Shown one piece after another: positions 1 through 34,298 of a stretch of 64,000 nucleotides of DNA. The notes beneath the pieces are model-generated. The model had not been told where the DNA came from. It saw nothing but the letters and a program-made list of their open reading frames with translations, and ran no database searches. Within the stretch, counting starts at the first letter, position 1. Every line of letters begins with the position of its first letter. The stretch lies in IMG/VR virus record IMGVR_UViG_3300044611_001420; one strand, written 5' to 3'. The DNA is from a virus. Position numbers and translations under genes: made by a program.

Positions 1-564
1 GACTTTGCTGATGTAAGAATCGCAAGAATGATTGCTTCTGGTGTTCCCAAAGAAGTTGCAATCGCAAAGGTTAAAGGAAAACCATATAATGAAGAGTTTG
101 AACTTGATGAAGCAACTGCAATGGCTAAGAGAGGCCACGATGAGACAGCAATCCGTAATAGAATTGCAAAATCAACAGGTGGTGGAGAGGCAGCAGATAG
201 AGCAACTGAATTAGAAAACAGACCAACTTATGGTCGAAGAGGTGTAAATCCAACAGCAAGACAAAATCTTGCTAGAGCACAAAGAGGTGATTTCCGTAGA
301 ACAACTTCTTCTGATTATGGTCTTCGTGGATATGCTCACAAGTCTGATGACCCTGCCGTAAAAGCAAAGCAGGCAGCAAGAGGAGCACAAAGAGGTGCTC
401 TGACTCCTAGAGAGAAAAAGCAACTCAATAGAGAGGCATATGAAGCATACGAATTTGTAGCATCATATCTTCTTGAAAACAACTTTGCTTCAACAGTTGA
501 AAACGCAAACGTAATCATCAGTAATATGAGTGAAGGTTGGTTTAATCAAATTATGGAAGGTTGA
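1..564 (+). CDS. Cassette-family basic protein, 5'-truncated by the window (putative head-internal protein)
   Basis: Frame is open from position 1. C-terminus YEFVASYLLENNFASTVENANVIISNMSEGWFNQIMEG aligns with the conserved C-termini of 25465..25836 and 32096..32506. Confidence 0.7.
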   Translation, partial: DFADVRIARMIASGVPKEVAIAKVKGKPYNEEFELDEATAMAKRGHDETAIRNRIAKSTGGGEAADRATELENRPTYGRRGVNPTARQNLARAQRGDFRRTTSSDYGLRGYAHKSDDPAVKAKQAARGAQRGALTPREKKQLNREAYEAYEFVASYLLENNFASTVENANVIISNMSEGWFNQIMEG

Positions 565-683: not shown

Positions 684-1130
684 ATGAGTTATGAAAACCC
701 TTGGAGATATCAAGGAAGGATATTTGAATCAGAAGATATTCAAGATTATTTTGGGTTTGTTTATTTAATTGAATGTTCTCAAACTAACAGAAAATATTTG
801 GGTAGAAAATACTTTTGGTCTTTTAGAACTCCCAAAGGAAAGAAAAGAAAAGTAAAACAAGAATCAGATTGGAAAAATTATTATGGTTCTTGTCCTGAGT
901 TAAAAGAAGATATTAAAAAGATAGGAAAGGATAAGTTTCAAAGAACTATTTTATCACTTCATAAAACTGTTGGTAAAACCAACTATGAAGAAACAAGGCA
1001 ATTGTTCTTAAACAATGTCTTAACTGAGTCTCTTGACAATGGTACTCCTGTCTACTATAATTCAAATATACTTTCAAGATACTTTAGGAAGGATTACTTC
1101 AATGAAGATTCATGCCAAGAAAATGTGTAA
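684..1130 (+). CDS. denA: GIY-YIG endonuclease, T4 endonuclease II-like
   Basis: GFVYLI...YLGRK, W..YYGS and YYN.NI motifs; 148 aa. Confidence 0.7.
   Translation: MSYENPWRYQGRIFESEDIQDYFGFVYLIECSQTNRKYLGRKYFWSFRTPKGKKRKVKQESDWKNYYGSCPELKEDIKKIGKDKFQRTILSLHKTVGKTNYEETRQLFLNNVLTESLDNGTPVYYNSNILSRYFRKDYFNEDSCQENV
1033..1061 (+). promoter_or_regulatory. Sigma70-type early promoter inside denA
   Basis: TTGACA-17 bp-TATAAT, exact consensus. Confidence 0.6.
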
Positions 1131-14186: not shown

Positions 14187-14215
14187 TTGACTATTAGTTA
14201 AACCCATAGTATTAT
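14187..14215 (+). promoter_or_regulatory. Sigma70-type promoter inside the glycan island
   Basis: TTGACT-17 bp-TATTAT in an intergenic gap. Confidence 0.5.
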
Positions 14216-14237
14216 TTCTTTGTATCTATTAAAATTT

Positions 14238-16248: not shown

Positions 16249-16543
16249 CATGAAAGGTGGATGGTTTGTTGGTGATTTTGAACCATCTACTTTTAAGAAT
16301 CCTTTTTTTGAGGTCGCACACCATCAACATAAGAAGGGTAGGGGTCAACCTCATGTCCATAAAGTCACCACTGAATTGACTTATATTATAGAAGGAGAAA
16401 TGTTAGTTTCTGGTCAACATCTTGAGAGTGGTGATATGTGGATCTATGATAAAAATGAAGTTGCTGATGTCGAGAATCTAACTAATGTCAGTCTTATTGT
16501 AGTTCGTTGGCCTTCTGTTCCTTCGGATAAGTATTTGGTATGA
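16226..16543 (+). CDS. Cupin-domain protein
   Basis: GGWFVGDFEP, H.HK..TE....G. Confidence 0.7.
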   Translation: MKIFKIDDMKGGWFVGDFEPSTFKNPFFEVAHHQHKKGRGQPHVHKVTTELTYIIEGEMLVSGQHLESGDMWIYDKNEVADVENLTNVSLIVVRWPSVPSDKYLV

Positions 16544-18658: not shown

Positions 18659-19299
18659 ATATACAAGATTATTTAAGAGAATTGAGTAAAAATTATAAAC
18701 CTACTTCAATATTGGATATTGGAGCACATCACGGAGAATTTTCTAAATTTTGCAAGTCACTTTGGGAAGATGTGGACTTATTGATGTTGGAAGGTAATGA
18801 TGAATGCGAATTCGTTTTAGATCAATTGCCATTTGATCATTGTATTGTTCTTTTGAGCGATACTAATAAAGAAGTTACTTTATATTTGAATCCAAATAAC
18901 TTAAGTTGTACTGGAACTTCTTATTATAAAGAAAGAACAAGACATTATAAAAATAGTATAGAAGTTAAGAAAAATACATATACTCTAGATGAAGTTATAG
19001 AAGATATTAATAAAAAATATGATGTAATTAAGATTGATACTCAAGGATCTGAATTGGATATCATAAAAGGTGGATTGAAAACAGTTCAGAATTGTTCTTA
19101 TTTGATAATGGAAGTTCCTATTCTTCAATATAATGAAGGAAGTCCTTTGTTTGATGAAATAGTTGAATATATGAATAGTATTGGATTTTCTGATCATGAA
19201 ATTATTGAAGAACATATTTGGAAAGATCCAAATGAAGATGAATTTGAATGTGGTCAAATTTTTCAATTAGATGTTGTTTTTAAAAAATTAAAAAATTAA
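18655..19299 (+). CDS. FkbM-family methyltransferase
   Basis: LDIGAHHG, IKIDTQGSEL. Confidence 0.9.
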   Translation: MNIQDYLRELSKNYKPTSILDIGAHHGEFSKFCKSLWEDVDLLMLEGNDECEFVLDQLPFDHCIVLLSDTNKEVTLYLNPNNLSCTGTSYYKERTRHYKNSIEVKKNTYTLDEVIEDINKKYDVIKIDTQGSELDIIKGGLKTVQNCSYLIMEVPILQYNEGSPLFDEIVEYMNSIGFSDHEIIEEHIWKDPNEDEFECGQIFQLDVVFKKLKN

Positions 19300-19318
19300 A
19301 AATAAAAGGAGTTATTTT

Positions 19319-19990
19319 ATGCAATCTTATGGTTTAAATGAATTAGATTTAAAATTATTAAAGTATATTGATTATAAAAATGGATTTTTTATAGAAGCTG
19401 GTGCTAATGATGGGATTTCACAATCAAATACCGCTTTGTATGAGTTTCATTATGGTTGGAAAGGGTTATTGGTAGAACCAATTTATAACAAATATCTTGA
19501 TTGTAAAAAAAATAGAAAAAATTCTATAGTTGAACATTGCGATCTTGTCGGTAAAAATTATAATAAAAAAACTATAAGAGGAAATTTTGATGAAACTGGA
19601 TATGCTGAAAGTTTAACCGCATGTGTTTGTGATGATGGAGATTATAATGATGATAGGTTGGTGGAACTTAAACAAAATTTAATTGAGAATAATCAATGGG
19701 CAAAGGATAATGGATACCATCCAATTGTTGAAGTGCCTGCGATTACTATTGGAGAATTGCTAAAAAAACACAAAATAGAAAAAATAGACCTTTTTTCTTT
19801 GGATGTTGAAGGATATGAAATTTCAGCATTGAATGGACTTGACTTTTTGATAAATAGACCAAAGTATTTTTTGATTGAAATGACTTATGATGAAAGAAAA
19901 AAAGCAATTACAGAATATATGATGAGTAAAAATTATAAAATGGTCGAATATTTTACACAAAACGATTGTTTGTGGATTGATGGTAAATGA
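19319..19990 (+). CDS. FkbM-family methyltransferase
   Basis: FIEAGANDG..QSNT, GLLVEP, SLDVEGYE. Confidence 0.9.
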   Translation: MQSYGLNELDLKLLKYIDYKNGFFIEAGANDGISQSNTALYEFHYGWKGLLVEPIYNKYLDCKKNRKNSIVEHCDLVGKNYNKKTIRGNFDETGYAESLTACVCDDGDYNDDRLVELKQNLIENNQWAKDNGYHPIVEVPAITIGELLKKHKIEKIDLFSLDVEGYEISALNGLDFLINRPKYFLIEMTYDERKKAITEYMMSKNYKMVEYFTQNDCLWIDGK

Positions 19991-19996
19991 AATATT

Positions 19997-20683
19997 ATGA
20001 TAAAATTGTGTGATAGTGTAAAAAATGGAAGACTTGCAAATAAATTACTCCAGAATATTGGAATAAGTGTTCTTGCAAAGAAGTATAATTATTTTCCTGA
20101 ATATCATGATATTGAGGAAAATAAATTAATTGGACTTAATTTATTTTATGGTAAAGAAAAAAAATCAAACTTTGTTTGGTATGATGAGCATGAAAGTTTA
20201 AAAAAACTTTTAGATGGAGTAGATATAGATCATGGTATCATTTATCATGGGTACTTTCAACAAAGGTATTTTTTATTAAATTGTAAAAAATATTTAGATG
20301 ATGTAATTAAAAAAAAAGAAATAAAAAAATATAACAAAGTTTTTGTTCATGTTAGACTTGGTGATCAGACACATACAAATCCCGGTATTTTATATTACGA
20401 AAAAATATTAGATTCCATTTCGTTTAGTGGTGGAATGATTTCTAGTGATAGTTTAGAAAATCCAATGATAACAAATTTATCGGAAAAATATAATCTTAAA
20501 ATTTTTAATTCTTCTCCGATAGATACTATAATTGTTGGATCTGAGTATGAATATAGGGTTTTGAGTAATGGATCTTTTAGTTGGATGATTGGATATCTTG
20601 GAAATAATGACAAAGTTTTTTGTCCAACTACTTTGACTTATCATGGTGATATGTTTGTTTATCCTGAATGGAATTATTTTTAG
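19997..20683 (+). CDS. Alpha-1,2-fucosyltransferase-like (GT11)
   Basis: GRLAN, GYFQ, VHVRLGD, SNGSFSW. Confidence 0.82.
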   Translation: MIKLCDSVKNGRLANKLLQNIGISVLAKKYNYFPEYHDIEENKLIGLNLFYGKEKKSNFVWYDEHESLKKLLDGVDIDHGIIYHGYFQQRYFLLNCKKYLDDVIKKKEIKKYNKVFVHVRLGDQTHTNPGILYYEKILDSISFSGGMISSDSLENPMITNLSEKYNLKIFNSSPIDTIIVGSEYEYRVLSNGSFSWMIGYLGNNDKVFCPTTLTYHGDMFVYPEWNYF

Positions 20684-20690
20684 AGGTAAA

Positions 20691-21584
20691 ATGAAAAGTT
20701 TAGTTACAGGTGCAGCAGGATTTATTGGTTCAACTCTTGTTGATGAATTAATCAAACAGGGACACGAAGTTATTGCAATTGATAATGAGAGTGCAGAATC
20801 CAATGAAGAATTTTATTGGAATGATGAAGCACAAAATTATAAGTATGATATTTGTGATTACGAAAAAACCAGGTCTCTTTATGATGGGATTGATTATGTA
20901 TTTCATCTTGCTGCTGAGGCAAGGATTCAACCAGCAATTTTAAGTCCTATTGAAGCAGTTAGTATTAATTGTGTAGGTACTGTTACAGTCCTTCAGTGTG
21001 CCAGAGAAGCAGGAGTAAAGAAAGTGATTTATTCTTCTACATCTTCTGGTTATGGATTTAATGAAAAACCAAATCACGAAAATCAACGAGATGATTGTTT
21101 AAATCCATATTCGGTATCTAAAGTTGCTGGAGAAAAACTCTGCAAAATGTATAATGACTTATTCGGTCTTAAAACAATTTCCTTTAGGTATTTTAATGTT
21201 TATGGTGAAAGGCAACCTTTAAAAGGACAATATGCTCCAGTTATTGGTATTTTCTTACGTCAACGAAAGGATGGTGAACCTCTTACTATTGTTGGGGATG
21301 GGGAACAACGTAGAGACTTTACACACGTATCTGATGTAGTTCAAGCAAATATTCTTGCAGCAACAAAAGATATTGATGATGAATATTATGGTGAACTTTA
21401 TAATGTAGGTAATGGTGTGAATTACTCAATTAATGAAATTGCAAATGTTATATCTGATAATCAAATAAATATTCCAGCAAGAATTGGAGAATCACGAATT
21501 ACTCTTGCAAATAATGGAAAATTGAGAACCATTTTTGGATGGAGACCTCAAGTAAATTTAATGGATTGGATTAAAACTCAATGA
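20691..21584 (+). CDS. NAD-dependent nucleotide-sugar epimerase (WcaG/GalE-like)
   Basis: VTGAAGFIGS, FHLAA, YSVSK, RYFNVYG, RDFTHVSDV. Confidence 0.92.
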   Translation: MKSLVTGAAGFIGSTLVDELIKQGHEVIAIDNESAESNEEFYWNDEAQNYKYDICDYEKTRSLYDGIDYVFHLAAEARIQPAILSPIEAVSINCVGTVTVLQCAREAGVKKVIYSSTSSGYGFNEKPNHENQRDDCLNPYSVSKVAGEKLCKMYNDLFGLKTISFRYFNVYGERQPLKGQYAPVIGIFLRQRKDGEPLTIVGDGEQRRDFTHVSDVVQANILAATKDIDDEYYGELYNVGNGVNYSINEIANVISDNQINIPARIGESRITLANNGKLRTIFGWRPQVNLMDWIKTQ

Positions 21585-22285
21585 ATTTATTAATAGAATA
21601 TTTTAGATCCCCTGATTATCAGAGGCATAGTGAATATCTTACTTGTATTCACGAGAATTTGGAAAATGAGTACATTGATAAAGTTTATATTTTTATATCA
21701 GATGATGCAAAGTTAAATTTTCAATCTGATAAAATAGAAATTGTTCAAAGAGAAGAAAGGCCAACATATAAGGACCTTTTTGAATTTTGTAATGAAAATC
21801 TAAAAGATCAAATTTGTATTATTGCAAATGCTGATATTATTCTTGATGAAACTTTATCTGCAGTTAAAGAAACTAATTTAGATAATATTTTTGTTGCTTT
21901 AACACGATGGGAAGTATTTTGCCAAAATGGTGAGTGGTGTATTGCTCCATTTGATAATTCTTCTTCCCAAGATGTTTGGGTGTTTACTACACCAATTAAA
22001 ACAACTGAAGAAATGAATTTTACATTAGGAAAACCTGGATGTGATAATAAAATTGCTAAATTGATGGCAGAACAAGGATATACATTAAAAAATCCAGGAA
22101 AACAAATAGTATGTGCTCACTATCATATTTCTGGACATAGAAATTATAATAATGATGATAGAATTCCTGGTCCATATACTTGCTTAGTGCCAAATAATGA
22201 TATTAATACAGAGACACAACTTATTGAAATTGATGGTTTTGATGAACAAGGAAGAGCATATATTATACAGAAGGAAAATTTATAA
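21581..22285 (+). CDS. Putative glycosyltransferase (GT-A-like)
   Basis: IIANADI, ALTRW, SQDVW, GKPGCDN. Confidence 0.5.
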   Translation: MNLLIEYFRSPDYQRHSEYLTCIHENLENEYIDKVYIFISDDAKLNFQSDKIEIVQREERPTYKDLFEFCNENLKDQICIIANADIILDETLSAVKETNLDNIFVALTRWEVFCQNGEWCIAPFDNSSSQDVWVFTTPIKTTEEMNFTLGKPGCDNKIAKLMAEQGYTLKNPGKQIVCAHYHISGHRNYNNDDRIPGPYTCLVPNNDINTETQLIEIDGFDEQGRAYIIQKENL

Positions 22286-23085
22286 TGAAAATTGGAATAA
22301 TTGGAAATGGATTTGTTGGTAATGCTATATACCAAAATCTAAAAAATAAGATTCAAAATTTATTTGTTTTTGATGTTGATGAAAAAAGATCTTTAAATTC
22401 TTATGATGAAACTATAAATTCAGATATTGTTTTTGTTTGTCTTCCAACACCAATGAAAAATAAAATGGGTGGAGGATGCAATTTATCTTATATTGAATCA
22501 TTTTTTGAAGATCTTCCTAAAAATCTATCTGGGATTTTTGTTATAAAATCTACTGTTCCTATTGGAACTACCAAAGCATTAAGTGAAAAAAGATTAGATT
22601 TAAAAATAATTCATAATCCAGAATTCTTAACTGCCAGAAATTCTGTAGAAGATTTTAATAATGCTGATAGAAATATTATTGGTGGAGAAAAAGAATCATC
22701 TCAAAAATTAGAAAATTTTTATTTAAACTATTTTCCTCATATCAAAAATATTTTAGTTTCTTTTGAAGAATCTGAATCAATAAAATACTTTTCTAACACA
22801 TATCTTTCAATGAAAGTCACTTATTTTAATTTAATGTTTGATTTATGTGACAAACTTGGAATTGATTTTGAGAAAGTTAGAAGTGGTGTTTGTTTGGATA
22901 AAAGGATTGGTGAATCTCATAGTTTGGTTCCAGGCATTGATGGAGACAGGGGATTTGGTGGAACTTGTTTTCCGAAAGATTTAAATGCTCTTAATGAAAC
23001 TTTTAATGATAACGATTTGAATAGTTCTATATTTTCTGAGATTTGGAATTATAACATTAAGATTAGAAAAAATATTGATTGGTGA
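22285..23085 (+). CDS. ugd: UDP-glucose/GDP-mannose dehydrogenase, short form lacking the C-terminal UDP-binding domain
   Basis: GIIGNGFVG, CLPTP, IKSTVPIG, NPEFL, KYFSN, GFGGTCFPKD. Confidence 0.88.
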   Translation: MKIGIIGNGFVGNAIYQNLKNKIQNLFVFDVDEKRSLNSYDETINSDIVFVCLPTPMKNKMGGGCNLSYIESFFEDLPKNLSGIFVIKSTVPIGTTKALSEKRLDLKIIHNPEFLTARNSVEDFNNADRNIIGGEKESSQKLENFYLNYFPHIKNILVSFEESESIKYFSNTYLSMKVTYFNLMFDLCDKLGIDFEKVRSGVCLDKRIGESHSLVPGIDGDRGFGGTCFPKDLNALNETFNDNDLNSSIFSEIWNYNIKIRKNIDW

Positions 23086-23130
23086 ATATAATTTAGCAAA
23101 TCCTAACACAATTAGGTATAAATTACTACT

Positions 23131-23167
23131 AGAGGGGCTTGACCCCTCTTTATTTTTGCTATATAAT
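23131..23167 (+). promoter_or_regulatory. Terminator hairpin with embedded sigma70-type promoter for hli
   Basis: AGAGGGG-CTTGA-CCCCTCT; TTGACC(23139)-17 bp-TATAAT(23162). Confidence 0.7.
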
Positions 23168-23194
23168 TCTGTAATGTTTCTTAACAAAACTTAT

Positions 23195-23404
23195 ATGACT
23201 GTAACCAAAAATGAATTTGGGCAAATGAATATGTGGGCAAAAGAACCTTCTATGTATATGACTAAGGAAGATCTTGAGCGTTATGGTATTGAACCTTATG
23301 CCGAAAAGGCGGAGAAAATGAATGGACGCTGGGCAATGGTCGGTTTTATTGCTGCTATCATTTCTTATGTTGGCACTGGTAAACTCTTCTTCGGTATCTT
23401 CTGA
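23195..23404 (+). CDS. hli: High-light inducible protein
   Basis: AEKMNGRWAMVGF chlorophyll-binding motif. Confidence 0.93.
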   Translation: MTVTKNEFGQMNMWAKEPSMYMTKEDLERYGIEPYAEKAEKMNGRWAMVGFIAAIISYVGTGKLFFGIF

Positions 23405-24030: not shown

Positions 24031-24702
24031 ATGACATTAGATCTTCATAACTTTTTTAAGTATTATGATGATGGAAATTCGAATCATGTGGCAGCAGTGC
24101 AATGGTTAGAGGATAACCTTCCTGCTGAATTCATGGATGACTCAGAAACAGAATGGATTGGAATCTTTAGAACTAAACCACCTACACCAGCAGTTCTTGA
24201 TGTTCCATATTTTAATCAAGTAGATAATTATAGAGATGCACATAGAACTTGTAACAGTTCATCATGTGCTATGTGTCTTGCTTTCCTCAAACCAGGAAGC
24301 ATTAAAGGTGATGATGAATATGTTAAGAAAGTATTTGCGATTGGTGACACGACAGACCATGCGGTTCAGACAAAGGTTCTCGCAGGTTATGGTATTAAGT
24401 CTCACTTTAGTTATAATCTTTCTTTTGCTGACATTGATAAGAGCCTTGATAGGGGAAAACCAGTTGTCATTGGAATTCTTCATCGTGGTTCTCTAACTTC
24501 CCCTACTGGTGGACACATGTGCGTAGTCATCGGTAAGACACCTGATGGTAAAGGATACTATGTAAATGATCCTTATGGTTCTCTAAACGATAACTATACT
24601 GGTCCAGTTACAAATGGTAAGAAGACCATTTATACCAAAGCAGTTCTTAAGCACCGTTGGGCACCTACCGGAGGGGACGGATGGGGTCGTATCTTTGATT
24701 GA
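24031..24702 (+). CDS. Peptidase C39-like protein with N-terminal domain shared with the endolysin
   Basis: VPYFNQ.D, C.SSSCAM (catalytic Cys), GHMCVVIG, VNDPYG. Confidence 0.85.
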   Translation: MTLDLHNFFKYYDDGNSNHVAAVQWLEDNLPAEFMDDSETEWIGIFRTKPPTPAVLDVPYFNQVDNYRDAHRTCNSSSCAMCLAFLKPGSIKGDDEYVKKVFAIGDTTDHAVQTKVLAGYGIKSHFSYNLSFADIDKSLDRGKPVVIGILHRGSLTSPTGGHMCVVIGKTPDGKGYYVNDPYGSLNDNYTGPVTNGKKTIYTKAVLKHRWAPTGGDGWGRIFD

Positions 24703-24715: not shown

Positions 24716-24799
24716 CTTAATTGGTTCGCATCTTTAAGGTAGAGGGGGGAGCAGAAATGCTCCTTTTCTTGTATAAATACTATTGCGAACCAATTTAAG
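24716..24799 (+). promoter_or_regulatory. Leader of homing endonuclease: long-range inverted repeat enclosing a terminator and late promoter
   Basis: AATTGGTTCGCA (24719-24730) pairs with TGCGAACCAATT (24784-24795); inner GGAGCA-GAAA-TGCTCC plus T-run; TATAAATA at 24772. Confidence 0.65.
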
Positions 24800-24806
24800 A
24801 GTAGAA

Positions 24807-25442
24807 ATGGTAAATCCTAACAGGTTTTATACCTATGCCTATTTACGTGAGGATAGAACTCCTTATTACATAGGTAAGGGAGTAAGATATAGATTATTTG
24901 AAGGTAGTGGAAAACCTTGTCCTGTTCCAAAAGATAAAAATAGAATAATCTTTCTCAAACAAAATCTTATAGAAGAGGAAGCATTTAAACACGAAACTTA
25001 TATGATAAGTGTGTTCGGCAGAAAGATTGATGGTGGAATTCTTTTGAATAAAACTTTTGGTGGTGAAGGTGCTTCTGGTAGAGTAGTCAAAGATTCCACC
25101 AGAGTAATTCTTAAAGAGAAATGTAGTGGGTGGAAACACACACCAGAAGCAATAGAAAAAATAAGACAAAGTTCTTTGAGTAGGATATATTCCCCAAAAA
25201 GTGAGGAAACAAAAAGAAAAATAAGTAATACTCTAAAAGGAAGAAAATTATCAAAAGAGTTGGTAGATAAAAGAACTCAATCTGTCTGTAAAAATACTTA
25301 TGTCATAATATCACCAGATGGGGTTAAATATAATACCAATAATTTAAAAGAATTCCAAAGACAAAATAATTTAAAACATCTTTATGATGTGGTTTCTGGT
25401 AAAAGGAAACAAGAGAAAGGTTGGACTGCTTTTAAAATATAA
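24807..25442 (+). mobile_element. Free-standing homing endonuclease (GIY-YIG variant with NUMOD3-like repeats)
   Basis: YTYAYLRED.TPYYIGKG; LLNKTFGGEG; HTPEAIEKIR and KSEETKRKIS repeats. Confidence 0.8.
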
Positions 25443-25464
25443 ATAACTAAAAAGTATTTGTAAA

Positions 25465-25836
25465 ATGGACGCACAAGAACTTCGTGCCCTTCAAGAAGCT
25501 TATAATCAAGTTTATCAGGTTGATGAAGAACTTACTGGTGCTCGCAAACAAAAAGCATCTGATTTACTTAATAGAAAACTAAGAGATGTTGAAACTCTTA
25601 GAAAACTTAGTGCTCGTAAAAGACAAAAACCAGAAGATGTTGGTTCTGGTAATAAAGCAAGAAGAAGAGCAGGTAAAGAAGTAAAGGATAGTCGTATTGC
25701 TGTATCTGATAGTTATGACTATTACGACATCATCCTCTCACACTTACTTGATGAAGGATATGCTGAAACTCCAGAAGCAGCAGAAGCAATTATGGTGAAT
25801 ATGAGTGAAGATTGGAGAGAGAGTATTATTGGTTAA
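25465..25836 (+). CDS. Cassette-family basic protein (putative head-internal protein)
   Basis: Late promoter at 25438; conserved N-term MDAQELRALQEAY and C-term YDIILSHLLDEGYAETPEAAEAIMVNMSEDWRESIIG. Confidence 0.8.
   Translation: MDAQELRALQEAYNQVYQVDEELTGARKQKASDLLNRKLRDVETLRKLSARKRQKPEDVGSGNKARRRAGKEVKDSRIAVSDSYDYYDIILSHLLDEGYAETPEAAEAIMVNMSEDWRESIIG
25723..25836 (+). repeat. Dispersed repeat, copy A (3' end of cassette gene)
   Basis: 104/114 nt identical to 32393-32506 by hand alignment. Confidence 0.9.
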
Positions 25837-25842
25837 ATACTT

Positions 25843-25989
25843 ATGGAGAATGAAAACTCCTCGATTAATTTCAAGAGAAAGATCTTACAAAGAATTAAAG
25901 ATCTTACAAATCACGGAAAGCACTTAGAAGCTTCCAAACTTTTCAACAAATACTTTGGAGACGACAATGGCAAGAATCGATTTACATAA
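25843..25989 (+). CDS. Small hypothetical protein (48 aa)
   Basis: Translated by hand; fills the gap before the lysozyme. Confidence 0.45.
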   Translation: MENENSSINFKRKILQRIKDLTNHGKHLEASKLFNKYFGDDNGKNRFT

Positions 25990-26638
25990 CTTCTTCAAGT
26001 TCTATGACGAGAAGAACCCTAATCATGTGAAAGCAGTTCAATGGTTAGAAGATAACCTACCAGTCAAGTATCTGGAAGATAACGTAGATTGGGCGGAGAT
26101 CTACAGAGGAAAAAAGGGTAATGCGGCACCAGCATCAGCACCAACTGCTGCCGCTCCTGTAGTTGGTGGTGACGATATGCCTATGATAGGCCTTAAATTA
26201 ATCAAAGAGTTTGAAGGATGTCATCTAAAGGCATATCCCGATCCTCTATCTGGTGGACTTCCAATCACAATTGGTTGGGGTTCAACTCGTAAGAAAGATG
26301 GATCTGCATTCCATATGGGTGATACTCTCACACAAACAGAAGCAGATGAACTTTTGATTGAACAATGTAAGAGAGAGTTTCTTCCTTCACTTCGTAAAAT
26401 TCCACACTGGAATGAAATGTCTGACGGCAAAAGAGGTGCCCTACTTTCTTTTGCTTATAATCTCGGTGCTGGTTTTTATGGTTCTGGTGATTTTAATACT
26501 ATCACTAAGAGACTGAAGAATAAAGAATGGGACTTAGTTCCAGATGCTTTATATCTCTACAGAAATCCTGGTTCAAATGTAGAAGCAGGTCTTGCTCGTA
26601 GAAGAAAAGCAGAAGGTGAATCTTGGAAAAAAGGTTAA
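25967..26638 (+). CDS. Endolysin, GH24 lysozyme with shared N-terminal domain
   Basis: LIKEFEGC.LKAYPD, TIGWGST, ALLSFAYNLG, GLARRRKAE. Confidence 0.92.
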   Translation: MARIDLHNFFKFYDEKNPNHVKAVQWLEDNLPVKYLEDNVDWAEIYRGKKGNAAPASAPTAAAPVVGGDDMPMIGLKLIKEFEGCHLKAYPDPLSGGLPITIGWGSTRKKDGSAFHMGDTLTQTEADELLIEQCKREFLPSLRKIPHWNEMSDGKRGALLSFAYNLGAGFYGSGDFNTITKRLKNKEWDLVPDALYLYRNPGSNVEAGLARRRKAEGESWKKG

Positions 26639-26656
26639 CCCTATTCACAAAGGAAA

Positions 26657-27013
26657 ATGACTACTAAGAAAAACGAAAATGCTATGGGACAATTAATTCG
26701 TATATGTATCTTGGGTTGGTCTGCTGCTCTTCTTACTGCAAGTTATGCGGGCACTCTATCTAAGATGGACCCAACTTTTATCGCTACAGTCTTCACAGCA
26801 TCTGCTGCTACTTTTGGTATTAATACGATGAAGAAAGGTGGAGATGATGAAGATGAAAAAAAGCAAGAACCTAAAAGAGAAGAGTTTGTAGAAACTCCAC
26901 CAGAACCACCTGCCCCTGAAGCACCACCAGAAACTCTTGAAGCAAGAGTTGAAGCACTGGAAACTAAAGTAGAAGATGGTGAAGGATTCGTTCAACCACG
27001 CACAGGAGCATAA
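26657..27013 (+). CDS. Two-TM membrane protein with acidic/Pro-rich tail (holin candidate)
   Basis: Two hydrophobic helices; directly after the endolysin. Confidence 0.5.
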   Translation: MTTKKNENAMGQLIRICILGWSAALLTASYAGTLSKMDPTFIATVFTASAATFGINTMKKGGDDEDEKKQEPKREEFVETPPEPPAPEAPPETLEARVEALETKVEDGEGFVQPRTGA

Positions 27014-27126
27014 TGGCAAAATCAGCAAACAAAGGTAAGAAGGGTTCTGCTGGAGGTAAAAATTCTAAGCAGAATCAAGGTAATGCTACTGCAAAGAAAG
27101 CAAAGAACGGTGGTAAGAAAAAATAA
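27013..27126 (+). CDS. Highly basic 37-aa K/G-rich peptide
   Basis: MAKSANKGKKGSAGGKNSKQNQGNATAKKAKNGGKKK; AGGAG RBS; TAATG coupling. Confidence 0.65.
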   Translation: MAKSANKGKKGSAGGKNSKQNQGNATAKKAKNGGKKK

Positions 27127-27135
27127 TGAGGTTTT

Positions 27136-27336
27136 ATGCCAAGAGAGTGGAATACTCCCAAGCGTCAATGTTGGAACGCCCCAATTCACCAAATTCTTAA
27201 AGCAATAGATAATCACACCCGCCTTCATATGGAGACGGGTGATTTTTGGCATGAAGAACAAGCACAAATATTAAGAAAATATGTAAAAGATTTAAAGATA
27301 TGGATTCATAAGCAAGAAGGTGTTTGGGATGAATGA
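27136..27336 (+). CDS. Hypothetical protein
   Basis: GAGG RBS; 66 aa. Confidence 0.65.
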   Translation: MPREWNTPKRQCWNAPIHQILKAIDNHTRLHMETGDFWHEEQAQILRKYVKDLKIWIHKQEGVWDE

Positions 27337-27434
27337 ATTTCCTTGGGGTGTAGTTATAATTCTTTGTTCTGGTTTGGTATTTACTGCTTATGTAATTTAC
27401 TACATATTAAAGTTAGCATCCGAGGAGATGAAAG

Positions 27435-27647
27435 ATGAAACATCTGAGTCTAATTCTATCAATCACAAGTCTAAGCATTAGTGGTGCTCTTTGCGTAGGA
27501 GCATACATTACTTATCAAAAAGCACAGAAGATTCTAGATAATCCGGAAGCATTTGTTGGTGCTGTTGTAGAGAAACAGGTATCAAAAGCATTTGAAAAAT
27601 TACCTATTCCTAAACTAAATACTGAGAAGTTTAAATTACCATTCTAA
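27435..27647 (+). CDS. Small membrane protein
   Basis: N-terminal hydrophobic helix; GAGGAG RBS. Confidence 0.65.
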   Translation: MKHLSLILSITSLSISGALCVGAYITYQKAQKILDNPEAFVGAVVEKQVSKAFEKLPIPKLNTEKFKLPF

Positions 27648-28051
27648 TGGATAAAGACCCATATATCTACAGAGTAAAACAAGTATTGAGAGTAGTTGAT
27701 GGTGACACAATCGATGCGGATATTGATCTTGGCTTCGATATTTCTCTTACTAAGCGAGTACGCCTTAGTGGTGTTGATACTCCGGAAAGTCGTACAACCG
27801 ATCTCAAAGAAAAAGCACTTGGATTAGAAGTCAAAGAATGGTTGAAAAAAAATCTTGATGGTAAAAAAAATATTCTCATTAAAACGGAACTTCCAGACTC
27901 AACTGAAAAGTATGGAAGAATTCTTGGAAGGTTATATGTTGATGATGTATGTCTTAATGATCGTATGATCTCTGAAGGATATGCTTGGGAATACTCAGGA
28001 GGAACAAAGAAAAAGGATTTTGCTGAACTTGACGCAAAGCGTAAGAAGTGA
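27647..28051 (+). CDS. Thermonuclease (SNase-like)
   Basis: RVVDGDTI, RVRLSGVDTPE, KYGRILG, EGYAW.Y. Confidence 0.9.
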   Translation: MDKDPYIYRVKQVLRVVDGDTIDADIDLGFDISLTKRVRLSGVDTPESRTTDLKEKALGLEVKEWLKKNLDGKKNILIKTELPDSTEKYGRILGRLYVDDVCLNDRMISEGYAWEYSGGTKKKDFAELDAKRKK

Positions 28052-28251
28052 TTTACTTTAATATTGTAAGACTATTCTTAATCATTTGGAGTGCTTTAAT
28101 GATTTCTGCTGTTGAATCTGTTGCGATTCGCACAGAAGGACAAGTGGAACTTGATAATGCTAGTAGAGATGCTTATACTAAAGTTCTTGTACTTGCTGTA
28201 GGTTCTTTTCTTGGTGATGTTGCATTTAAAATAAAGAATAAATCAAAATAA
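28048..28251 (+). CDS. Small membrane protein
   Basis: Two hydrophobic segments. Confidence 0.5.
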   Translation: MIYFNIVRLFLIIWSALMISAVESVAIRTEGQVELDNASRDAYTKVLVLAVGSFLGDVAFKIKNKSK

Positions 28252-28935
28252 TTACTTTGAGTGAAACTTCTTATATTGTTCTTTCTTTTCGTTCTTCCCT
28301 TCTTTTTTGAGTAACTTATTGACTTTTTTCATAGAAGAAGTTTTTTCAAAAGCAAAATAAACCTGAAGTTCATAAGGAGTAAGATCTCTATTCAAGAGTT
28401 TCTTACCCCTTATGAATATCTGCTGAACAATAGGTTTCATTTTACCTACCATCCATTCCACCAAAGATTTGCCAACAATAGCCGCAGCAACAGAAGCAGT
28501 AGCAGTGGTGCCAGCAAGCATAACCTGTTCTTTCGGAGGAACTGGAACTTCCCCGATGATTGGTACTTCAATGACGGGTACTCCTAAATTACTAGTTTGT
28601 ATTGGTTGATCGGAATATTTCCGATCATCTGGGGGGGTTTGAACAACTGGGGGCAGTTGAGGGGTAGGGGTAGTATCTGGAAGTCCTCTGGATTTTTCTT
28701 CTTTTTCTTCTTCTTTCTTTTTTTGCTCTGCTCTTACGGCAGCATCAAACTCTTCTTGAGTTGGAACATCGATCACTGGATACTTTATAGTGGTATCTGG
28801 CATATTAATAATTGGCATATCAACACTTGGTATCACAGATCGTTCTGCTTTCCTAATTACGGGAGGTTCTATTGTTGGAATAATTGATGGAGCATCAATC
28901 CTAGAAGAATTAATTTTTATTGGTTTTATTTCCAT
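28252..28935 (-). CDS. Pro-rich protein with C-terminal membrane/amphipathic segment
   Basis: Last gene of the minus-strand operon; 227 aa. Confidence 0.7.
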   Translation of the reverse strand: MEIKPIKINSSRIDAPSIIPTIEPPVIRKAERSVIPSVDMPIINMPDTTIKYPVIDVPTQEEFDAAVRAEQKKKEEEKEEKSRGLPDTTPTPQLPPVVQTPPDDRKYSDQPIQTSNLGVPVIEVPIIGEVPVPPKEQVMLAGTTATASVAAAIVGKSLVEWMVGKMKPIVQQIFIRGKKLLNRDLTPYELQVYFAFEKTSSMKKVNKLLKKEGKNEKKEQYKKFHSK

Positions 28936-29515
28936 TTGCTACATCCTGTACTCTTGGATACTTCACAATAATATCAGCACAAATTTTTGCATAGGGACTT
29001 TGTGGATGAAATGAAATTCCATTCTTTAATGCTTCACCACACTTCAAAAGTCTCACAAGTTCAAAGTCAAGTCTTGCCTTATCCGATTCTGCTTGTTGTC
29101 TTGAAATTTCTACACGAGCTCTTGCCTTACAAAGTTCTTGTAATGAACCATCTAGAGGAAAATTAAAACCCAAACTTACTCCAAAGTTTCCACTATGAGA
29201 TTGGTATGATGTTGGGTCTTGATTTCCATTGAAACTTCCCAAAGCAAATGGAGCAACACTCATTGTAGGACCCTGACATGAAACTCCATTACCAAATGTA
29301 TTCAAGGCATAAGGACCTTGAAGCACCTGAACTGCCTGATTCACAACACTACCTGTTGCTGAAGCACTTGGACCTGCAATATTCGTATTACTTGGTGCTT
29401 GTTGTGCTTTACTTCTTGTGGAATCTGCAAGTGCTAATAATAATATTCCTGTTACTGTGTAAAGACCGATATTGAGTTTGTTACTGAATCTTCGGTAGTT
29501 TTGCGATCTATCCAT
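28910..29515 (-). CDS. Secreted Cys-containing hypothetical protein
   Basis: N-terminal hydrophobic segment; beta-like GVSLGFNFPLD; 4 Cys. Confidence 0.7.
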   Translation of the reverse strand: MDRSQNYRRFSNKLNIGLYTVTGILLLALADSTRSKAQQAPSNTNIAGPSASATGSVVNQAVQVLQGPYALNTFGNGVSCQGPTMSVAPFALGSFNGNQDPTSYQSHSGNFGVSLGFNFPLDGSLQELCKARARVEISRQQAESDKARLDFELVRLLKCGEALKNGISFHPQSPYAKICADIIVKYPRVQDVANGNKTNKN

Positions 29516-29814
29516 GTTTCCTTTGCCACTCCAGGAGTCAGATATGTCTCACTAAATTGGAATGGAGCACCTTGAGTTTGAATTGTGTAATTCATACCAG
29601 GAGCAGGAGTTCCTGGTATATTAATGTTGGTGCCAGTGACTGTATAAGATGTTCCAGTAGTATATTCTATTTGCCTGATAGTCTCAATAACTTCAGTGCG
29701 TGTTTTAGTCTCAGATGTAATAGTCCCACTGGTGAAGTTGGGAGTTACGGGTCCAGCGTATGAAGGACTTATAACTCCCAGAACTGTAACCAGTCCGAGA
29801 GTTATGTGTCTCAC
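29452..29814 (-). CDS. Secreted Thr-rich protein (paralogue of 29811..30272)
   Basis: Signal peptide ending SYA; SYTVTGTNIN and FQFSET motifs. Confidence 0.75.
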   Translation of the reverse strand: MRHITLGLVTVLGVISPSYAGPVTPNFTSGTITSETKTRTEVIETIRQIEYTTGTSYTVTGTNINIPGTPAPGMNYTIQTQGAPFQFSETYLTPGVAKETWIDRKTTEDSVTNSISVFTQ

Positions 29815-30272
29815 TTAAATACGCTCAATTCAACGCTACGTTGTGCTGTTCCAGTTGTTCCTGAACCACCAGCAGTGATTGTTGGAACACCAGTTCCGCT
29901 TAAAGTACCAGCAAGAGAACCCTTATCTCCACCTAATTGAGTAGTAGAGTTGCTATAAAGGTTGGGAGAAGCAATTGTTCCAGAAGCTGCCGACTGAGAG
30001 GTAACATCAACATCTGCAGTAATTGATGTTTCAGAGAAACTAAATGCTTGTCCGTTTGTATTGATACCATAAGAACCTGCTCCACCAACTCCTCCAAGAG
30101 TTGTTACATTAATATTGGTGCCTGAAACTGCATATGAGGCACCGACTCTTTCTGATTGTACCGCAGCACCCTGAACATTTAATTGAATTGAGTCAGTGAT
30201 TTTTGATGTGATTTCACCAGCAAAAGCAGGAGTAGTGAAGAATAACGAAAAGATAAGTGCTAATCTTTTCAT
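29811..30272 (-). CDS. Secreted Ser/Thr/Gly-rich protein
   Basis: Signal peptide ending AFA; SYAVSGTNIN and FSFSET motifs. Confidence 0.75.
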   Translation of the reverse strand: MKRLALIFSLFFTTPAFAGEITSKITDSIQLNVQGAAVQSERVGASYAVSGTNINVTTLGGVGGAGSYGINTNGQAFSFSETSITADVDVTSQSAASGTIASPNLYSNSTTQLGGDKGSLAGTLSGTGVPTITAGGSGTTGTAQRSVELSVFK

Positions 30273-30367
30273 TTTTCTAAAAGTAATGTTTGTAACTATT
30301 TATTGATGTTATTTTGTTATTTGTCTTTATGTATTATACTATAAATAAATTGAGTTTATTTAATTTT

Positions 30368-30586
30368 ATGACTGAACAACAGGAACATCTTGCGAATCTT
30401 GTAAAGCAAGCACAAGACCTATCCCTTGAATTGGAAGGACTTCAAACTAAGGCCACAACAAAAAGAGAACTTTTTTTGAAGGTTCAAGGTGCGATTGAGT
30501 ATCTTACACAAATAGGTGTGACTCTTCCACAACCAGAACCACAACCAGAAGAAATTCCACTCCCAGAAACAGAAGTAGCAGAATGA
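30368..30586 (+). CDS. Coiled-coil hypothetical protein
   Basis: Late promoter at 30340; KVQGAIEYL. Confidence 0.7.
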   Translation: MTEQQEHLANLVKQAQDLSLELEGLQTKATTKRELFLKVQGAIEYLTQIGVTLPQPEPQPEEIPLPETEVAE

Positions 30587-30592
30587 TTTACG

Positions 30593-30653
30593 GTCCCCGA
30601 AAGGGGACTTTTTTATGCCTTGACACCATCGGCACCCAGTGCTATGATAAATA
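30593..30653 (+). promoter_or_regulatory. Terminator followed by psbA promoter
   Basis: GTCCCC-GAAA-GGGGAC plus T-run; TTGACA(30620)-17 bp-TATGAT(30643) overlapping ATAAATA. Confidence 0.75.
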
Positions 30654-30694
30654 AGTCAGGAAACAAAGACAAATCTTTACGTTCCGTAACCTTC

Positions 30695-30800
30695 TGCAAC
30701 CGAGACCATCAGAAGTAAAGCGTCTCTCATATCCACGATGGAGGGTGTCGTGGGGAATACTTGTACCGTTCAGTCCCCCCTGAATTTTTACTTACCCTTT
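30695..30800 (+). ncRNA. PhotoRC-II-like RNA motif in the psbA leader
   Basis: ACCGAGAC...GTCTCTCATA, stem CCACGAT..GAGGG..GTCGTGG, GAATA, CCC tract and CTTAC before psbA; matches my recollection of the cyanophage motif. Confidence 0.65.
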
Positions 30801-30807
30801 TTAACAA

Positions 30808-31890
30808 ATGACTGCTACAATTGCTTCACGCCGTTCTGGCGAAAACCTCTGGGAATCTTTTTGCCAGTGGGTTACTTCTACCGACAACCGTCTTTATGTT
30901 GGTTGGTTTGGTGTATTATGTATTCCAACTTTATTGGTTGCTACTATTTGTTTCATCATCGCATTTGTCGGTGCTCCCCCTGTGGACATTGACGGCATTC
31001 GTGAACCAGTTGCTGGTTCTCTAATGTATGGAAACAACATCATCTCTGGTGCCGTTGTTCCATCTTCTAATGCGATTGGTCTTCACTTCTATCCTATCTG
31101 GGAAGCAGCAAGTCTTGATGAATGGCTCTATAATGGTGGTCCTTACCAGTTGGTAGTCTTCCACTTCCTCATTGGTGTTTTCTGCTATATGGGTCGTGAG
31201 TGGGAACTTTCTTACCGTCTTGGTATGCGTCCTTGGATTATGGTTGCTTACAGTGCTCCTGTTGCTGCTGCGACTGCCGTATTCTTGGTCTATCCTTTCG
31301 GTCAAGGTTCTTTCTCTGATGGTATGCCTCTTGGTATCTCTGGTACGTTCAACTACATGCTTGTGTTCCAGGCAGAGCACAACATCCTGATGCACCCCTT
31401 CCATATGCTTGGAGTTGCTGGTGTCTTCGGTGGTTCTCTGTTCAGTGCTATGCACGGTTCTCTGGTTACTTCCTCACTGGTTCGTGAAACCACTGAAACT
31501 GAATCGCAAAACTATGGTTACAAGTTCGGTCAAGAAGAAGAGACTTATAACATCGTTGCTGCTCATGGATACTTCGGTCGTCTGATCTTCCAGTATGCAT
31601 CGTTCAACAACTCTCGTTCACTTCACTTCTTCCTTGCTGCTTGGCCTGTTGTAGGCATCTGGTTCACTGCTCTTGGTGTTTCTACGATGGCCTTCAATTT
31701 GAATGGCTTCAACTTTAATCAGAGCATCGTTGATAGTCAGAACCGTGTAGTTAATACCTGGGCTGATGTCCTGAACCGTGCTGGACTGGGCATGGAGGTG
31801 ATGCACGAAAGGAACGCACACAACTTCCCTCTTGACCTTGCTGCTGCTGAGAACACTCCTGTTGCTCTCACTGCACCTTCTATTGGTTGA
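30808..31890 (+). CDS. psbA: Photosystem II D1 protein, uninterrupted
   Basis: Full 360-aa D1 sequence; Glu130 form; [14 protein letters not shown]. Confidence 0.99.
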
Positions 31891-31916
31891 TATAAAACTG
31901 AATAACTGATATAATT

Positions 31917-31942
31917 AAGAGGGTATAACAACCCTCTTTTTT
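31917..31942 (+). terminator. Rho-independent terminator
   Basis: AAGAGGGT...ACCCTCTT plus T-run. Confidence 0.75.
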
Positions 31943-32062
31943 ATGTCTCACAATACTGAATACGAAAAGATGCCAAACTGGGTGATCTGGGCTGGTGTAG
32001 GAATTATGGTATTCACAATACTCTGCTTTGTCTTACTGACTGTTGGAATGATTTATGAATGA
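31943..32062 (+). CDS. Membrane micro-protein (39 aa)
   Basis: Translated by hand; single TM. Confidence 0.5.
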   Translation: MSHNTEYEKMPNWVIWAGVGIMVFTILCFVLLTVGMIYE

Positions 32063-32095
32063 TAAAAATATAAATACTTAAAAGGTATTTGTACT

Positions 32096-32506
32096 ATGGA
32101 CGCACAAGAATTTCGTAGTCTTCAAGAAGCATATATGGAAGTTGTTATTGGTGAAGGAACTAATGATAAAGAATATGATGTTCACGGAAGAAGAAAAAAA
32201 TTAATGCCAAAAAGAAATCCTGAAAAAGTGGGGCAGGAAAAACCAACAGTAAGAAAAGCAAAACAAAATCCCTCATTTTTCAGTAATCAAAAATATGGAA
32301 TGTTAGGTACTACAAATTTTGGTAGTATGTCTGGAAAAATGACTAAAAGTGAAAGAAATATGAAAAGAACTCAAAAAGAACAAGTAGATATTTACGACAT
32401 CATTCTTTCACATTTACTTGATGAAGGATATGCTGAAACACCAGAAGCAGCAGAATCTATTATGGTGAATATGAGTGAAGAGTGGAGACAAAGTATTATT
32501 GGTTGA
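32096..32506 (+). CDS. Cassette-family basic protein (putative head-internal protein)
   Basis: Late promoter at 32069; N-term MDAQEFRSLQEAY; conserved 37-aa C-term. Confidence 0.8.
   Translation: MDAQEFRSLQEAYMEVVIGEGTNDKEYDVHGRRKKLMPKRNPEKVGQEKPTVRKAKQNPSFFSNQKYGMLGTTNFGSMSGKMTKSERNMKRTQKEQVDIYDIILSHLLDEGYAETPEAAESIMVNMSEEWRQSIIG
32393..32506 (+). repeat. Dispersed repeat, copy B (3' end of cassette gene)
   Basis: 104/114 nt identical to 25723-25836. Confidence 0.9.
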
Positions 32507-32590
32507 GTATAATGTGATATGATACGGAGGAGACCTGTGAAGGTCTCTTTTTTTATAAATAATAATGTAGTAGAGACAGCAACAGTAAGA

Positions 32591-33169
32591 ATGAAACATA
32601 AACATCATATTGTTCCAAGACATATGGGTGGAACTGACGACTCATCAAATCTTATTGAACTGACTGTGGAAGAACACGCAGAGGCACACAGAAAGTTGTG
32701 GGAGCAATATGGTAATATCAAAGATTATTGTGCTTGGAAAGGTTTAGAAGGAACTATTGGTAAAGAAGAGATTGTAAGGTTGCTGATGGACCCAACTGGA
32801 AGAGTTCATACAGAAGAAACAAAACAAAAAATCAGTCAATCACATAAAGGTAAGTTGAAGCATACAGAAGAGAGTAAAGAAAAGTTGAGACAGTTTAGAA
32901 CTGGTATGAAGTTGAGTGAGGAGCATAAGGCAAAAATCTCAAAGAGTTTAGAAGGTAATACTCGTATGGTTGGTAAAAAGTTGAGTGAAGAAACAAAACA
33001 AAAGTTGAGTGAGGCAGGTAAAGGTAATAAGAATGCTTCTAAAAATCCAAATATTAGTGAAGAAGAAAGAGAGAGAAGAAGTGAAGCAACAAAAGAGAGA
33101 TGGAGGAAATATAGAGAGGCAAAGGGACTTGACCCAGATAAACCGATTGATAAAAGATACGGTAAGTAG
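32591..33169 (+). mobile_element. Free-standing HNH homing endonuclease with NUMOD3-like repeats
   Basis: HHIVPRHMGGTD..SNL..LT..EH..AH; repeated (H/L)(T/S)EE(T/S/H)K.K(I/L); terminator and TATAAATA (32554) upstream. Confidence 0.85.
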
Positions 33170-33207: not shown

Positions 33208-33236
33208 AAATATGAGAAATACTAAAAGGAGGATTG

Positions 33237-34298
33237 ATGGTATCTTCATCACTTTCATTACCAAACCAACAACGAAGTTGGTTTGATTTACTTGATGATT
33301 GGTTGAAAAGAGATAGGTTTGTGTTTATTGGATGGAGTGGTTTACTTTTTATGCCTTGTGCTTACCTAGCATTAGGTGGATGGTTTACTGGAATTACATT
33401 CGTCACGAGTTTTTATACACACGGTTTAGCATCCTCATTTCTAGAAGGTTGTAATGCGTTGACCGCTGCGGTAAGCACCCCAGCAGACGCTATGGGTCAT
33501 TCTCTTCTTCTACTTTGGGGTCCTGAGTCTCAGGGAGATTTCGTCCGCTGGGTCCAACTTGGGGGACTCTGGCCTTTTGTGGCACTCCACGGTGCCTTTG
33601 CTCTCATAGGTTTCATGCTTCGTCAGTTTGAAATTGCACGTTTAGTAGGAATTAGACCGTACAATGCTATTGCGTTTTCTGGGCCTATCGCTGTTTTTGT
33701 CAGTGTGTTTCTCATGTATCCACTCGGACAGTCATCTTGGTTCTTTGCGCCGTCGTTTGGTGTTGCTGCGATTTTTAGGTTCCTCCTATTCTTACAAGGT
33801 TTCCATAACTGGACGCTCAACCCCTTTCATATGATGGGAGTTGCTGGTATACTGGGAGGAGCACTGCTCTGTGCAATTCACGGAGCAACTGTAGAAAACA
33901 CTCTATTTGAAGATGGAAATCAAGCAAACACGTTCAAAGCATTTGAACCTACGCAAGAGGAAGAGACTTATTCAATGGTTACTGCAAACCGATTCTGGTC
34001 GCAGATTTTTGGAATTGCTTTTTCCAATAAGCGTTGGTTACATTTTTTCATGCTTTTTGTTCCCGTTATGGGTCTCTGGACTAGTTCTATTGGTATTATT
34101 GGTTTGGCTCTCAATCTTCGTGCTTATGATTTTGTAAGTCAGGAGATTCGTGCTGCAGAAGACCCTGAGTTTGAAACGTTCTACACGAAGAACATTCTTT
34201 TGAATGAAGGATTACGTGCTTGGATGGCACCAGTAGACCAACCAGGGGAACGGTTCGTATTTCCAGAGGAAGTTCTCCCGAGGGGCAATGCACTCTAA
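33237..34298 (+). CDS. psbD: Photosystem II D2 protein
   Basis: [16 protein letters not shown]...[12 protein letters not shown]. Confidence 0.99.

Follow-up and report, generated by a model that had tools for sequence, protein, structure and literature searches.

The 64,000-nucleotide virus record IMGVR_UViG_3300044611_001420 (the window) comes from a T4-like cyanophage and has a G+C content of 33.5%. It contains two small genes, here called A and B, and the 3' part of a larger one, all three being members of a very large and undescribed family that belongs to the late genes of T4-like cyanophages. A member is laid out as a late promoter, a leader and a 17-residue acidic, amphipathic N-terminal tag (N-tag) with an invariant L-x-E, followed by one to three units; each unit consists of a basic, disordered segment and an acidic three-helix module of 39 residues (C-module), and a basic tail often comes after the last of them. 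The following parts of the family lie in the window:

25438..25464, + strand: late promoter TATAAATA (25438-25445) and conserved 19-nucleotide leader of gene A, overlapping the stop codon of the upstream endonuclease gene
25465..25836, + strand: gene A, 123 residues, with N-tag 25465-25515, basic middle about 25531-25713 and C-module 25714-25830
32069..32095, + strand: late promoter TATAAATA (32069-32076) and leader of gene B
32096..32506, + strand: gene B, 136 residues, with N-tag 32096-32146, an unrelated basic middle and C-module 32384-32500
1..564, + strand: 3' part of a large (about 700 residues), diverged member, with C-module 439-555

Conserved ends and unrelated middles of genes A and B

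Genes A and B are identical at 34 of the 39 nucleotides of their first 13 codons and at 104 of their final 114 nucleotides. These are exactly the counts given in an earlier note on this DNA, made from the sequence alone, and the common leader mentioned there proved to be identical at 26 of 31 positions. By blastn, the similarity falls into two blocks, one of 113 nucleotides at 92% identity (E = 2e-42) and one of 79 nucleotides at 83.5% (E = 1e-18). The middles cannot be aligned: their global nucleotide score lies at z = -0.1 relative to shuffled sequences, and their local amino acid score was matched by 7% of the shuffles. Both middles are basic, with 19 lysines plus arginines compared with 7-8 aspartates plus glutamates and net charges of +11 and +12, so that the alignments and the charge counts agree with the earlier description of unrelated, K/R-rich middles between common ends. 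The ends themselves are acidic, the first 22 residues carrying net charges of -5 and -4 and the last 39 residues -9 and -8 in genes A and B, respectively.

The diverged copy of the module that the earlier note had placed at the end of open reading frame (ORF) 1..564 was recovered both with a hidden Markov model (HMM; 34 bits) and by tblastn (E = 1e-7). A full-length relative of this ORF, of 709 residues, is found in a 171-kb contig of a T4-like cyanophage (G002); it starts with a variant of the N-tag, has a long low-complexity centre and is followed by the same SegE-like gene as in the window. The proposal that L/V-x-E motifs border the middles holds in part. The LDE motif was misplaced, as it lies 11 residues inside the C-module, and where gene A has VDE, gene B has IGE.

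Judging from the regions upstream of its genes, the family appears to be transcribed late, from a promoter at a fixed distance and through a conserved leader. The sequence TATAAATA, the T4 late promoter consensus, begins 27 nucleotides before the ATG in both gene A and gene B. Among 60 distinct upstream regions of genes with an N-tag, all with an ATG start, 45 contain TATAAATA and 56 contain NATAAATA at -26 to -30, which bears out the fixed late promoter claimed before. In the window, TATAAATA was seen 14 times (8 expected), 12 of these on the + strand.

Size, architecture and distribution of the family

A word-indexed search, in which relatives of similar length and longer relatives of genes A and B were counted separately as clusters at 90% identity, returned 2,263 near-length and 1,631 longer clusters, every one annotated as 'hypothetical'. 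When a profile of the 39-residue C-module was run against 1.84 billion representatives at 50% identity, 3,400 proteins matched at E<=1e-3 and 2,439 at E<=1e-10; carriers of the module thus number in the thousands. No Pfam family covers genes A and B. The PHROG families matched by members (3708, 22522 and 8176, the first two matching genes A and B) are all of unknown function, and a feature search of the ESM Atlas returned only unnamed viral clusters.

Alignment of 57 single-module members revealed 24 invariant columns, all within the first 16 or the last 37 residues. In the N-tag, M1, L9, E11 and Y13 never vary, and Q10 and A12 hardly do. The order of N-tags (N) and C-modules (C) among 148 representatives was NC in 60, NCC in 36, CC in 34, C in 16 and CCC in two, and the N-tag begins at residue 1 in 87 of 96 cases. 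The conserved C-terminus of genes A and B, which the earlier note regarded as a terminal tag, is in fact a portable internal module: the chain extends beyond the last copy in 102 of the 148 representatives (median tail 61 residues), and 72 of the 148 hold two or three copies.

Three family members each are present in G002, which also contains gp23, and in G001, a large T4-like cyanophage genome of 248,835 bp (100% complete according to CheckV) with gp21 and gp23. Diverged members occur in the cultured phages S-CRM01, S-SRM01, S-SCSM2R, B3/B23, DSL-LC02/03, S-WAM1 and P-SSM2/5. A megablast search of the gene A and gene B loci against 50,697 phage records gave zero matches at the DNA level. P-SSM2 gene 140 (L089 3992-4147) is a stand-alone C-module of 51 residues located between uvsY and uvsW, and forms the singleton cluster T4-GC 136 in Sullivan et al. 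(2010). In S-CRM01, an ORF with an N-tag and two ORFs with a module plus a core follow psbA as three abutting frames behind one TATAAATA. These genes, g95-g94-g93 (L001 3436-4330), read as one multi-module member broken by frame changes, a split that could be due to sequencing error, a pseudogene or programmed frameshifting.

Variable cores and the C-module

The variable segments were collected from 268 proteins, which gave 433 segments. They are net positive in 95% of cases, with a median charge of +7, 22% lysine plus arginine and 18% hydrophobic residues, and they sort into 137-188 unrelated classes; a sub-motif, GNKAxRR, is common to the middles of 77 of the 268 proteins. Among the best 120 long relatives, any Pfam domain was found in just two. 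Enzymatic cargo fused to the tags was considered and ruled out for these 120 relatives and for 10 long representatives, the latter having LisH matches alone. The 'cargo' is therefore basic, disordered polypeptide rather than enzymes, and the suggestion that the cores might be folded effectors resembling T4 IPI does not hold.

Conserved ends around hypervariable cores, together with the existence of multi-core precursors, also recall the leader, core and follower of ribosomally made, processed or secreted peptides of the cyanobactin or prochlorosin type, and one long relative has a precomputed match to PF14407. The cores, however, are 60-200 residues long, rich in lysine and arginine and low in cysteine; genes for modifying enzymes or transporters do not consistently adjoin the members, and there is no signal peptide. 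That the members are precursors of such peptides is thus extremely improbable.

An AlphaFold2 model of gene A contains helices at residues 3-22, 26-53, 82-97, 103-112 and 115-122. The N-tag is predicted to be helical, and the C-module is predicted to form three helices with a local confidence (pLDDT) of 92.8 when modelled alone and of about 88-90 within gene A. The whole chain is predicted to lack a compact fold (predicted template modelling score, pTM, 0.34). With the full-length model, Foldseek found nothing at E<3 in the PDB and only uncharacterised cyanophage proteins in BFVD. Searches with the C-module fold gave E>1.7 in the PDB by Foldseek and a best Z of 4.9 in a wide VIA search; the matches that appeared (common three-helix arrangements, a segment of RNA polymerase beta-prime, HMG boxes) were not regarded as meaningful. 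A profile search of PDB sequences gave no match.

Exchange of cores between phages

The basic segments of the family have been swapped between phages by homologous recombination, with crossovers inside the conserved leader/N-tag and C-module. Collinearity around gene A was measured as the number of matches per 20-nucleotide bin between the window and related contigs. Three contigs (L027, L065 and L038) agree with the window at 20 of 20 positions up to about 25440-25500, and at 20 of 20 again from about 25740-25760. Between these flanks, until about 25720, the match falls to the random level of 5-13 of 20, and the middles differ in length from that of gene A. The breakpoints sit within the leader/N-tag on one side and within the C-module on the other, as predicted by the earlier proposal that the conserved ends serve as recombination handles. 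Metagenome contigs can be chimeric at repeats, which weighs against this reading; yet the key arrangements recur, that of L038 in three different samples (L038-L040) and that of L027 again in L021, and cultured phages hold members. Recurrence in independent samples argues against assembly chimeras.

The cores and the ends also have separate histories, which bears on whether the middles assort independently of their flanks. At locus L005 of genome G001, only gene A and its leader match the window in 20 kb (window positions 25438-25831, 92%), and the locus lies in an unrelated part of the G001 genome relative to the window. Synonymous divergence (dS) between the window and L005 is 0.022 for the middle, compared with 0.59 for the N-tag and 0.82 for the C-module. 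The A-type middle is also found placed behind a C-module (L008, P0021-P0024 and P0026).

Could the genes be ordinary fast-diverging paralogues, with constrained ends and with disordered middles that drifted past recognition without any cassette exchange? Disordered regions do evolve quickly, and the GNKAxRR sub-motif is shared among many of the middles. Against drift alone stand the flanks that are identical at every base and enclose unrelated middles of unequal length, the L005 middle that is far less diverged than its ends, and the presence of the same middle at different architectural positions. Both the bin matching and the dS comparison contradict this explanation, unless those contigs are chimeric, and we regard it as very improbable.

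The conserved ends are alike at synonymous sites as well. Among codons for the same residue, the fraction of identical codons reaches 0.76 in the C-module and 0.86 in the N-tag, compared with 0.55-0.58 expected from the codon usage of the window. Concerted evolution within a genome was ruled out, as copies from the same locus, with a mean nucleotide identity of 79%, resemble each other no more closely than do copies from different loci (81%). The synonymous-site likeness of the ends and the equal identity within and between loci thus indicate a shared pool rather than within-genome concerted evolution.

Association with homing endonuclease genes

A link that the earlier note overlooked is that between the family and homing endonucleases. 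Free-standing genes for such enzymes often adjoin the members, and gain or loss affects both at once, as a block. All three members in the window adjoin such a gene:

684..1130, + strand: SegE-like GIY-YIG homing endonuclease (PF19835, E = 1.9e-53), just 3' of the large member
24783..25442, + strand: free-standing homing endonuclease with a GIY-YIG-like motif and NUMOD3 (NUMOD3, E = 3e-4; phrog_314, E = 2.7e-9), directly 5' of gene A
32519..33169, + strand: HNH/NUMOD3 homing endonuclease (NUMOD3, E = 3.4e-16; HNH, E = 6e-4; phrog_655, E = 2e-19), directly 3' of gene B, which lies between psbA and this gene

Across the fetched loci, 28 of 111 family ORFs (25%) lie at most 300 nucleotides from an endonuclease ORF, compared with 8.8% for random segments of the same loci, a rough comparison in that the loci are not independent. 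Movement as blocks is apparent at several sites. The endonuclease gene and gene A are inserted in the window between a Peptidase_C39-like gene and a lysozyme gene; in L017 and L072/L073 these two genes are joined directly, without the 1.2-kb block of endonuclease and gene A. The same loci carry an HNH gene and a family member between the homologue of a staphylococcal-nuclease-like gene (window 27647-28051) and its neighbour, where the window is empty. In L021, a homologue of gene B lies between psbA and psbD without the HNH gene, window position 32566 being joined to 33178. Breaks made by the neighbouring endonucleases, if repaired on any family member by way of the conserved ends, would both spread the members and swap their cores.

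A fourth homing-endonuclease-like gene in the window (40981-41532), with a GIY-YIG-like start resembling that of 24783-25442 and weak NUMOD matches, has no family member adjoining it.

The same association raises the question of whether the members are passengers or selfish genes of endonuclease cassettes, which would spread by riding along, or whose ends would be targets or landing sites, while the middles are little constrained. The adjacency of all three window members (25% overall), the insertion of blocks of an endonuclease and a member at three different intergenic sites, and a dN/dS ratio of 0.45-0.85 in the A-type middle, calculated from few substitutions, are in line with this. However, 75% of the members have no endonuclease gene within 300 nucleotides, and the enrichment is overstated by the non-independence of the loci. 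The ends are very strongly conserved at the protein level, as seen in the 24 invariant columns of the 57 aligned sequences, and a basic, disordered composition has been kept across hundreds of unrelated core classes, which argues for a selected function. A purely passenger role thus appears quite improbable.

Possible functions of the family products

By analogy with the internal proteins of T4, the family products may be targeted to the prohead and processed there, a reading that we hold to be plausible, if somewhat short of probable. In this reading, the acidic ends of the precursor would attach it to the scaffolding core of the prohead, the part played in T4 internal proteins by the capsid targeting sequence. 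A prohead protease of the gp21 type would then cut after LQE, and perhaps after further (L/I/V)-x-E sites, and the basic peptides, of about +11 each, would accompany the packaged DNA and be carried into the next host along with it.

In T4, the capsid targeting sequence is a propeptide of 10-19 residues by which proteins reach the scaffolding core and which gp21 cuts off, Alt being processed at both ends (PMC9026906). Within the 10-residue peptide, positions 4 and 7 matter for targeting and positions 8 and 10 for processing (PMC9026906), and similar tags precede a variety of basic proteins in the T-even phages (PMC9026906; PMC3012670). T4 ipII and ipIII have identical first 32 nucleotides, encoding MKTYQEFIAE, and similar leaders, with unrelated basic proteins behind. 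The N-tag of the cyanophage family contains an L-Q-E-A motif (L9 and E11 being invariant) whose form resembles MKTYQEFIAE-A. The same LQE is found at the N-terminus of the gp22 scaffold, where L7-Q8-E9 is invariant in G001 and 36 relatives, and the major capsid protein of G001 has the sequence FLGE-AS at about residue 54. G001 encodes the prohead protease gp21 (PF03420, E = 3e-39) as well as gp22, and S-CRM01 is annotated with both.

Several points weigh against prohead targeting. No virion proteomic, N-terminal-sequencing or expression record was found for any member; the paper on S-SRM01 has no virion data on members and the RefSeq annotation of S-CRM01 no virion notes. The relatives in P-SSM2 were classed as singletons by Sullivan et al. 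(2010), and P-SSM2 is outside the three phages with virion proteomes. PHROG and Pfam gave no match of genes A and B to the known internal-protein families IPI, IPII and IPIII, and no head genes lie within the 64-kb window. The likeness of the N-tag to the T4 targeting sequence amounts to about six positions in 11-13 residues, and in acidic helices a motif such as (L/I/V)-x-E is of low information. The C-module has no equivalent in the internal proteins of T4; being near-invariant, internal, repeated and, in P-SSM2, solitary, it is more readily seen as a domain for binding or dimerising, with a function of its own, than as a propeptide to be discarded.

The Pfam domain LisH (PF08513) matches helices 1-2 of the module above the cut-off in two relatives, P0156 and P0153 (27 bits; cut-off 21.6). 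It is the sole recurrent match to the module, seen weakly in 5 of 26 modules (best E = 0.009). It is thus possible, if rather doubtful, that the products are late cytoplasmic proteins that are not packaged, in which a LisH-like dimerising or docking module is combined with nucleic-acid-binding cores. With one to three modules in each chain, such proteins would be multivalent cross-linkers, acting late in infection (around packaging or lysis, for instance) to condense or organise the DNA or RNA of the phage or of the host. The module folds confidently alone in prediction and occurs internally, in multiple copies or by itself, and the cores are uniformly basic, disordered and without enzyme domains, all of which would suit this role. 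On the other hand, the window's own modules have no LisH match at E<=1, and nothing specific emerged from three fold searches or from the profile search of the PDB. A literature search on LisH in phages found nothing relevant. Cross-linking would also leave unexplained why the N-tag is fixed at residue 1 with an invariant L-x-E-A and an LQE identical to that of gp22. The two roles are not mutually exclusive.

A wider interpretation, which we consider unlikely, would see in the family a combinatorial system spanning whole populations. The T4-like cyanophages of fresh water would draw on a common stock of thousands of basic peptide cores, carried on a universal chassis composed of the late promoter, an N-terminal targeting and cleavage tag and the acidic docking module. 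The cores would be shuffled by endonucleases during co-infection, loaded into capsids as polyproteins, released by the protease and injected as a variable first line against host defences.

P-SSM2 gene 211 (L175 238-1959) encodes a protein of 573 residues, with 119 lysines plus arginines compared with 43 aspartates plus glutamates, that starts with MKSLSQFIIE, near to the T4 sequence MKTYQEFIAE. It adjoins a family-like gene with the same leader motif and has a late-promoter-like ATAAATA upstream. These features make gene 211 a candidate for an internal protein in a marine cyanophage.

Genomic surroundings in the window

The window contains genes for a T4-type baseplate and tail, for lysis enzymes and for four homing endonucleases, as well as a cluster for sugar biosynthesis. 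It also holds two photosystem genes:

30808-31890: psbA
33234-34298: psbD

The Peptidase_C39-like gene (24031-24702) and the phage lysozyme gene (25955-26638) that flank the block with gene A in the window, and are adjacent in L017 and L072, have an N-terminal module of about 55 residues in common, and PHROG 3617 (405 positions) spans both genes. The staphylococcal-nuclease-like gene at 27647-28051 (PF00565, E = 3e-15) lies within the lysis/late region. An ORF of 499 residues at 2294-3793 combines an SLH domain (E = 1e-7) with an OprB-family porin domain (E = 6e-17), and looks like a cyanobacterial outer-membrane porin, here carried by a phage. About 19 kb of + strand genes at 4861-23404, including a GDP-mannose 4,6-dehydratase (E = 7e-154) and glycosyltransferases, constitute a biosynthesis cluster of the polysaccharide or lipopolysaccharide type inside the phage.

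Comparison with known systems

T4-like cyanophages are among the most abundant viruses of lakes and oceans, and to our knowledge no internal or ejected proteins have been identified in them so far. The family supplies testable internal-protein candidates in two cultured phages, S-CRM01 and S-SRM01, and explains 'hypothetical' proteins of metagenomes by the thousand. Should either the N-tag or the C-module prove to direct capsid loading, proteins might be brought into cyanophage capsids with it, as has been done with the targeting sequence of T4. Whatever its function, the family is among the clearest natural cases of within-gene exchange in which conserved coding ends act as recombination sites, here tied to homing endonucleases.

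LisH is a two-helix motif that forms a homodimeric four-helix bundle. Its pattern, hydrophobic-x-x-[YH]-L-[LI]-x-E-G-[YF]-x-x-T-x-x-A, fits helices 1-2 of the C-module; unlike LisH proper, however, the module copies are mostly below threshold, those of the window are unmatched, and the third helix, with its invariant N-M-S-E-x-W, has no LisH counterpart.

The free-standing homing endonucleases of T4 (seg and mob) cause co-conversion of neighbouring markers. The GIY-YIG and HNH genes described here resemble them in having late promoters, in lying between conserved genes and in being gained or lost together with their neighbours. We know of no earlier description of a recurrent partnership between endonucleases and one particular gene family.

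PeSL cassettes, whose promoter is of the early type, offer the closest known exchange mechanism. These promoter-terminator cassettes of T4-type phages are short conserved sequences that flank variable genes and serve as recombination sites, by which content is swapped among T4-like phages (PMC2839356; PMC4122927), much as in the present family. Whereas the PeSL motifs are non-coding, the family's first handle runs from the late promoter through the leader into the N-tag codons, its second is part of the coding sequence, the C-module, and exchange takes place within the gene. No terminator-like sites adjoin genes A and B on the + strand, except one after psbA.

The closest known case overall is that of T4 IPI, IPII and IPIII and the polymorphic internal-protein loci of T-even phages (PMC9026906; PMC3012670). 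Like these, the family consists of small, basic, late proteins, whose paralogues have a common leader and common first codons in the DNA. The putative N-terminal targeting peptide likewise ends in (L/I)-x-E-A, the parts behind it are unrelated and vary among related phages, and a gp21-type protease is present, here in relatives of the window. The family differs from T4 internal proteins in lacking detectable sequence homology to them, in possessing a second, near-invariant acidic three-helix module and polyprotein-like multi-module forms, and in having disordered cores instead of folded inhibitors. It is also orders of magnitude larger, and its packaging and cleavage are putative. What is new is thus the second conserved coding handle, the multi-module polyprotein-like forms, the thousands of cores and the recurrent pairing with homing endonucleases.

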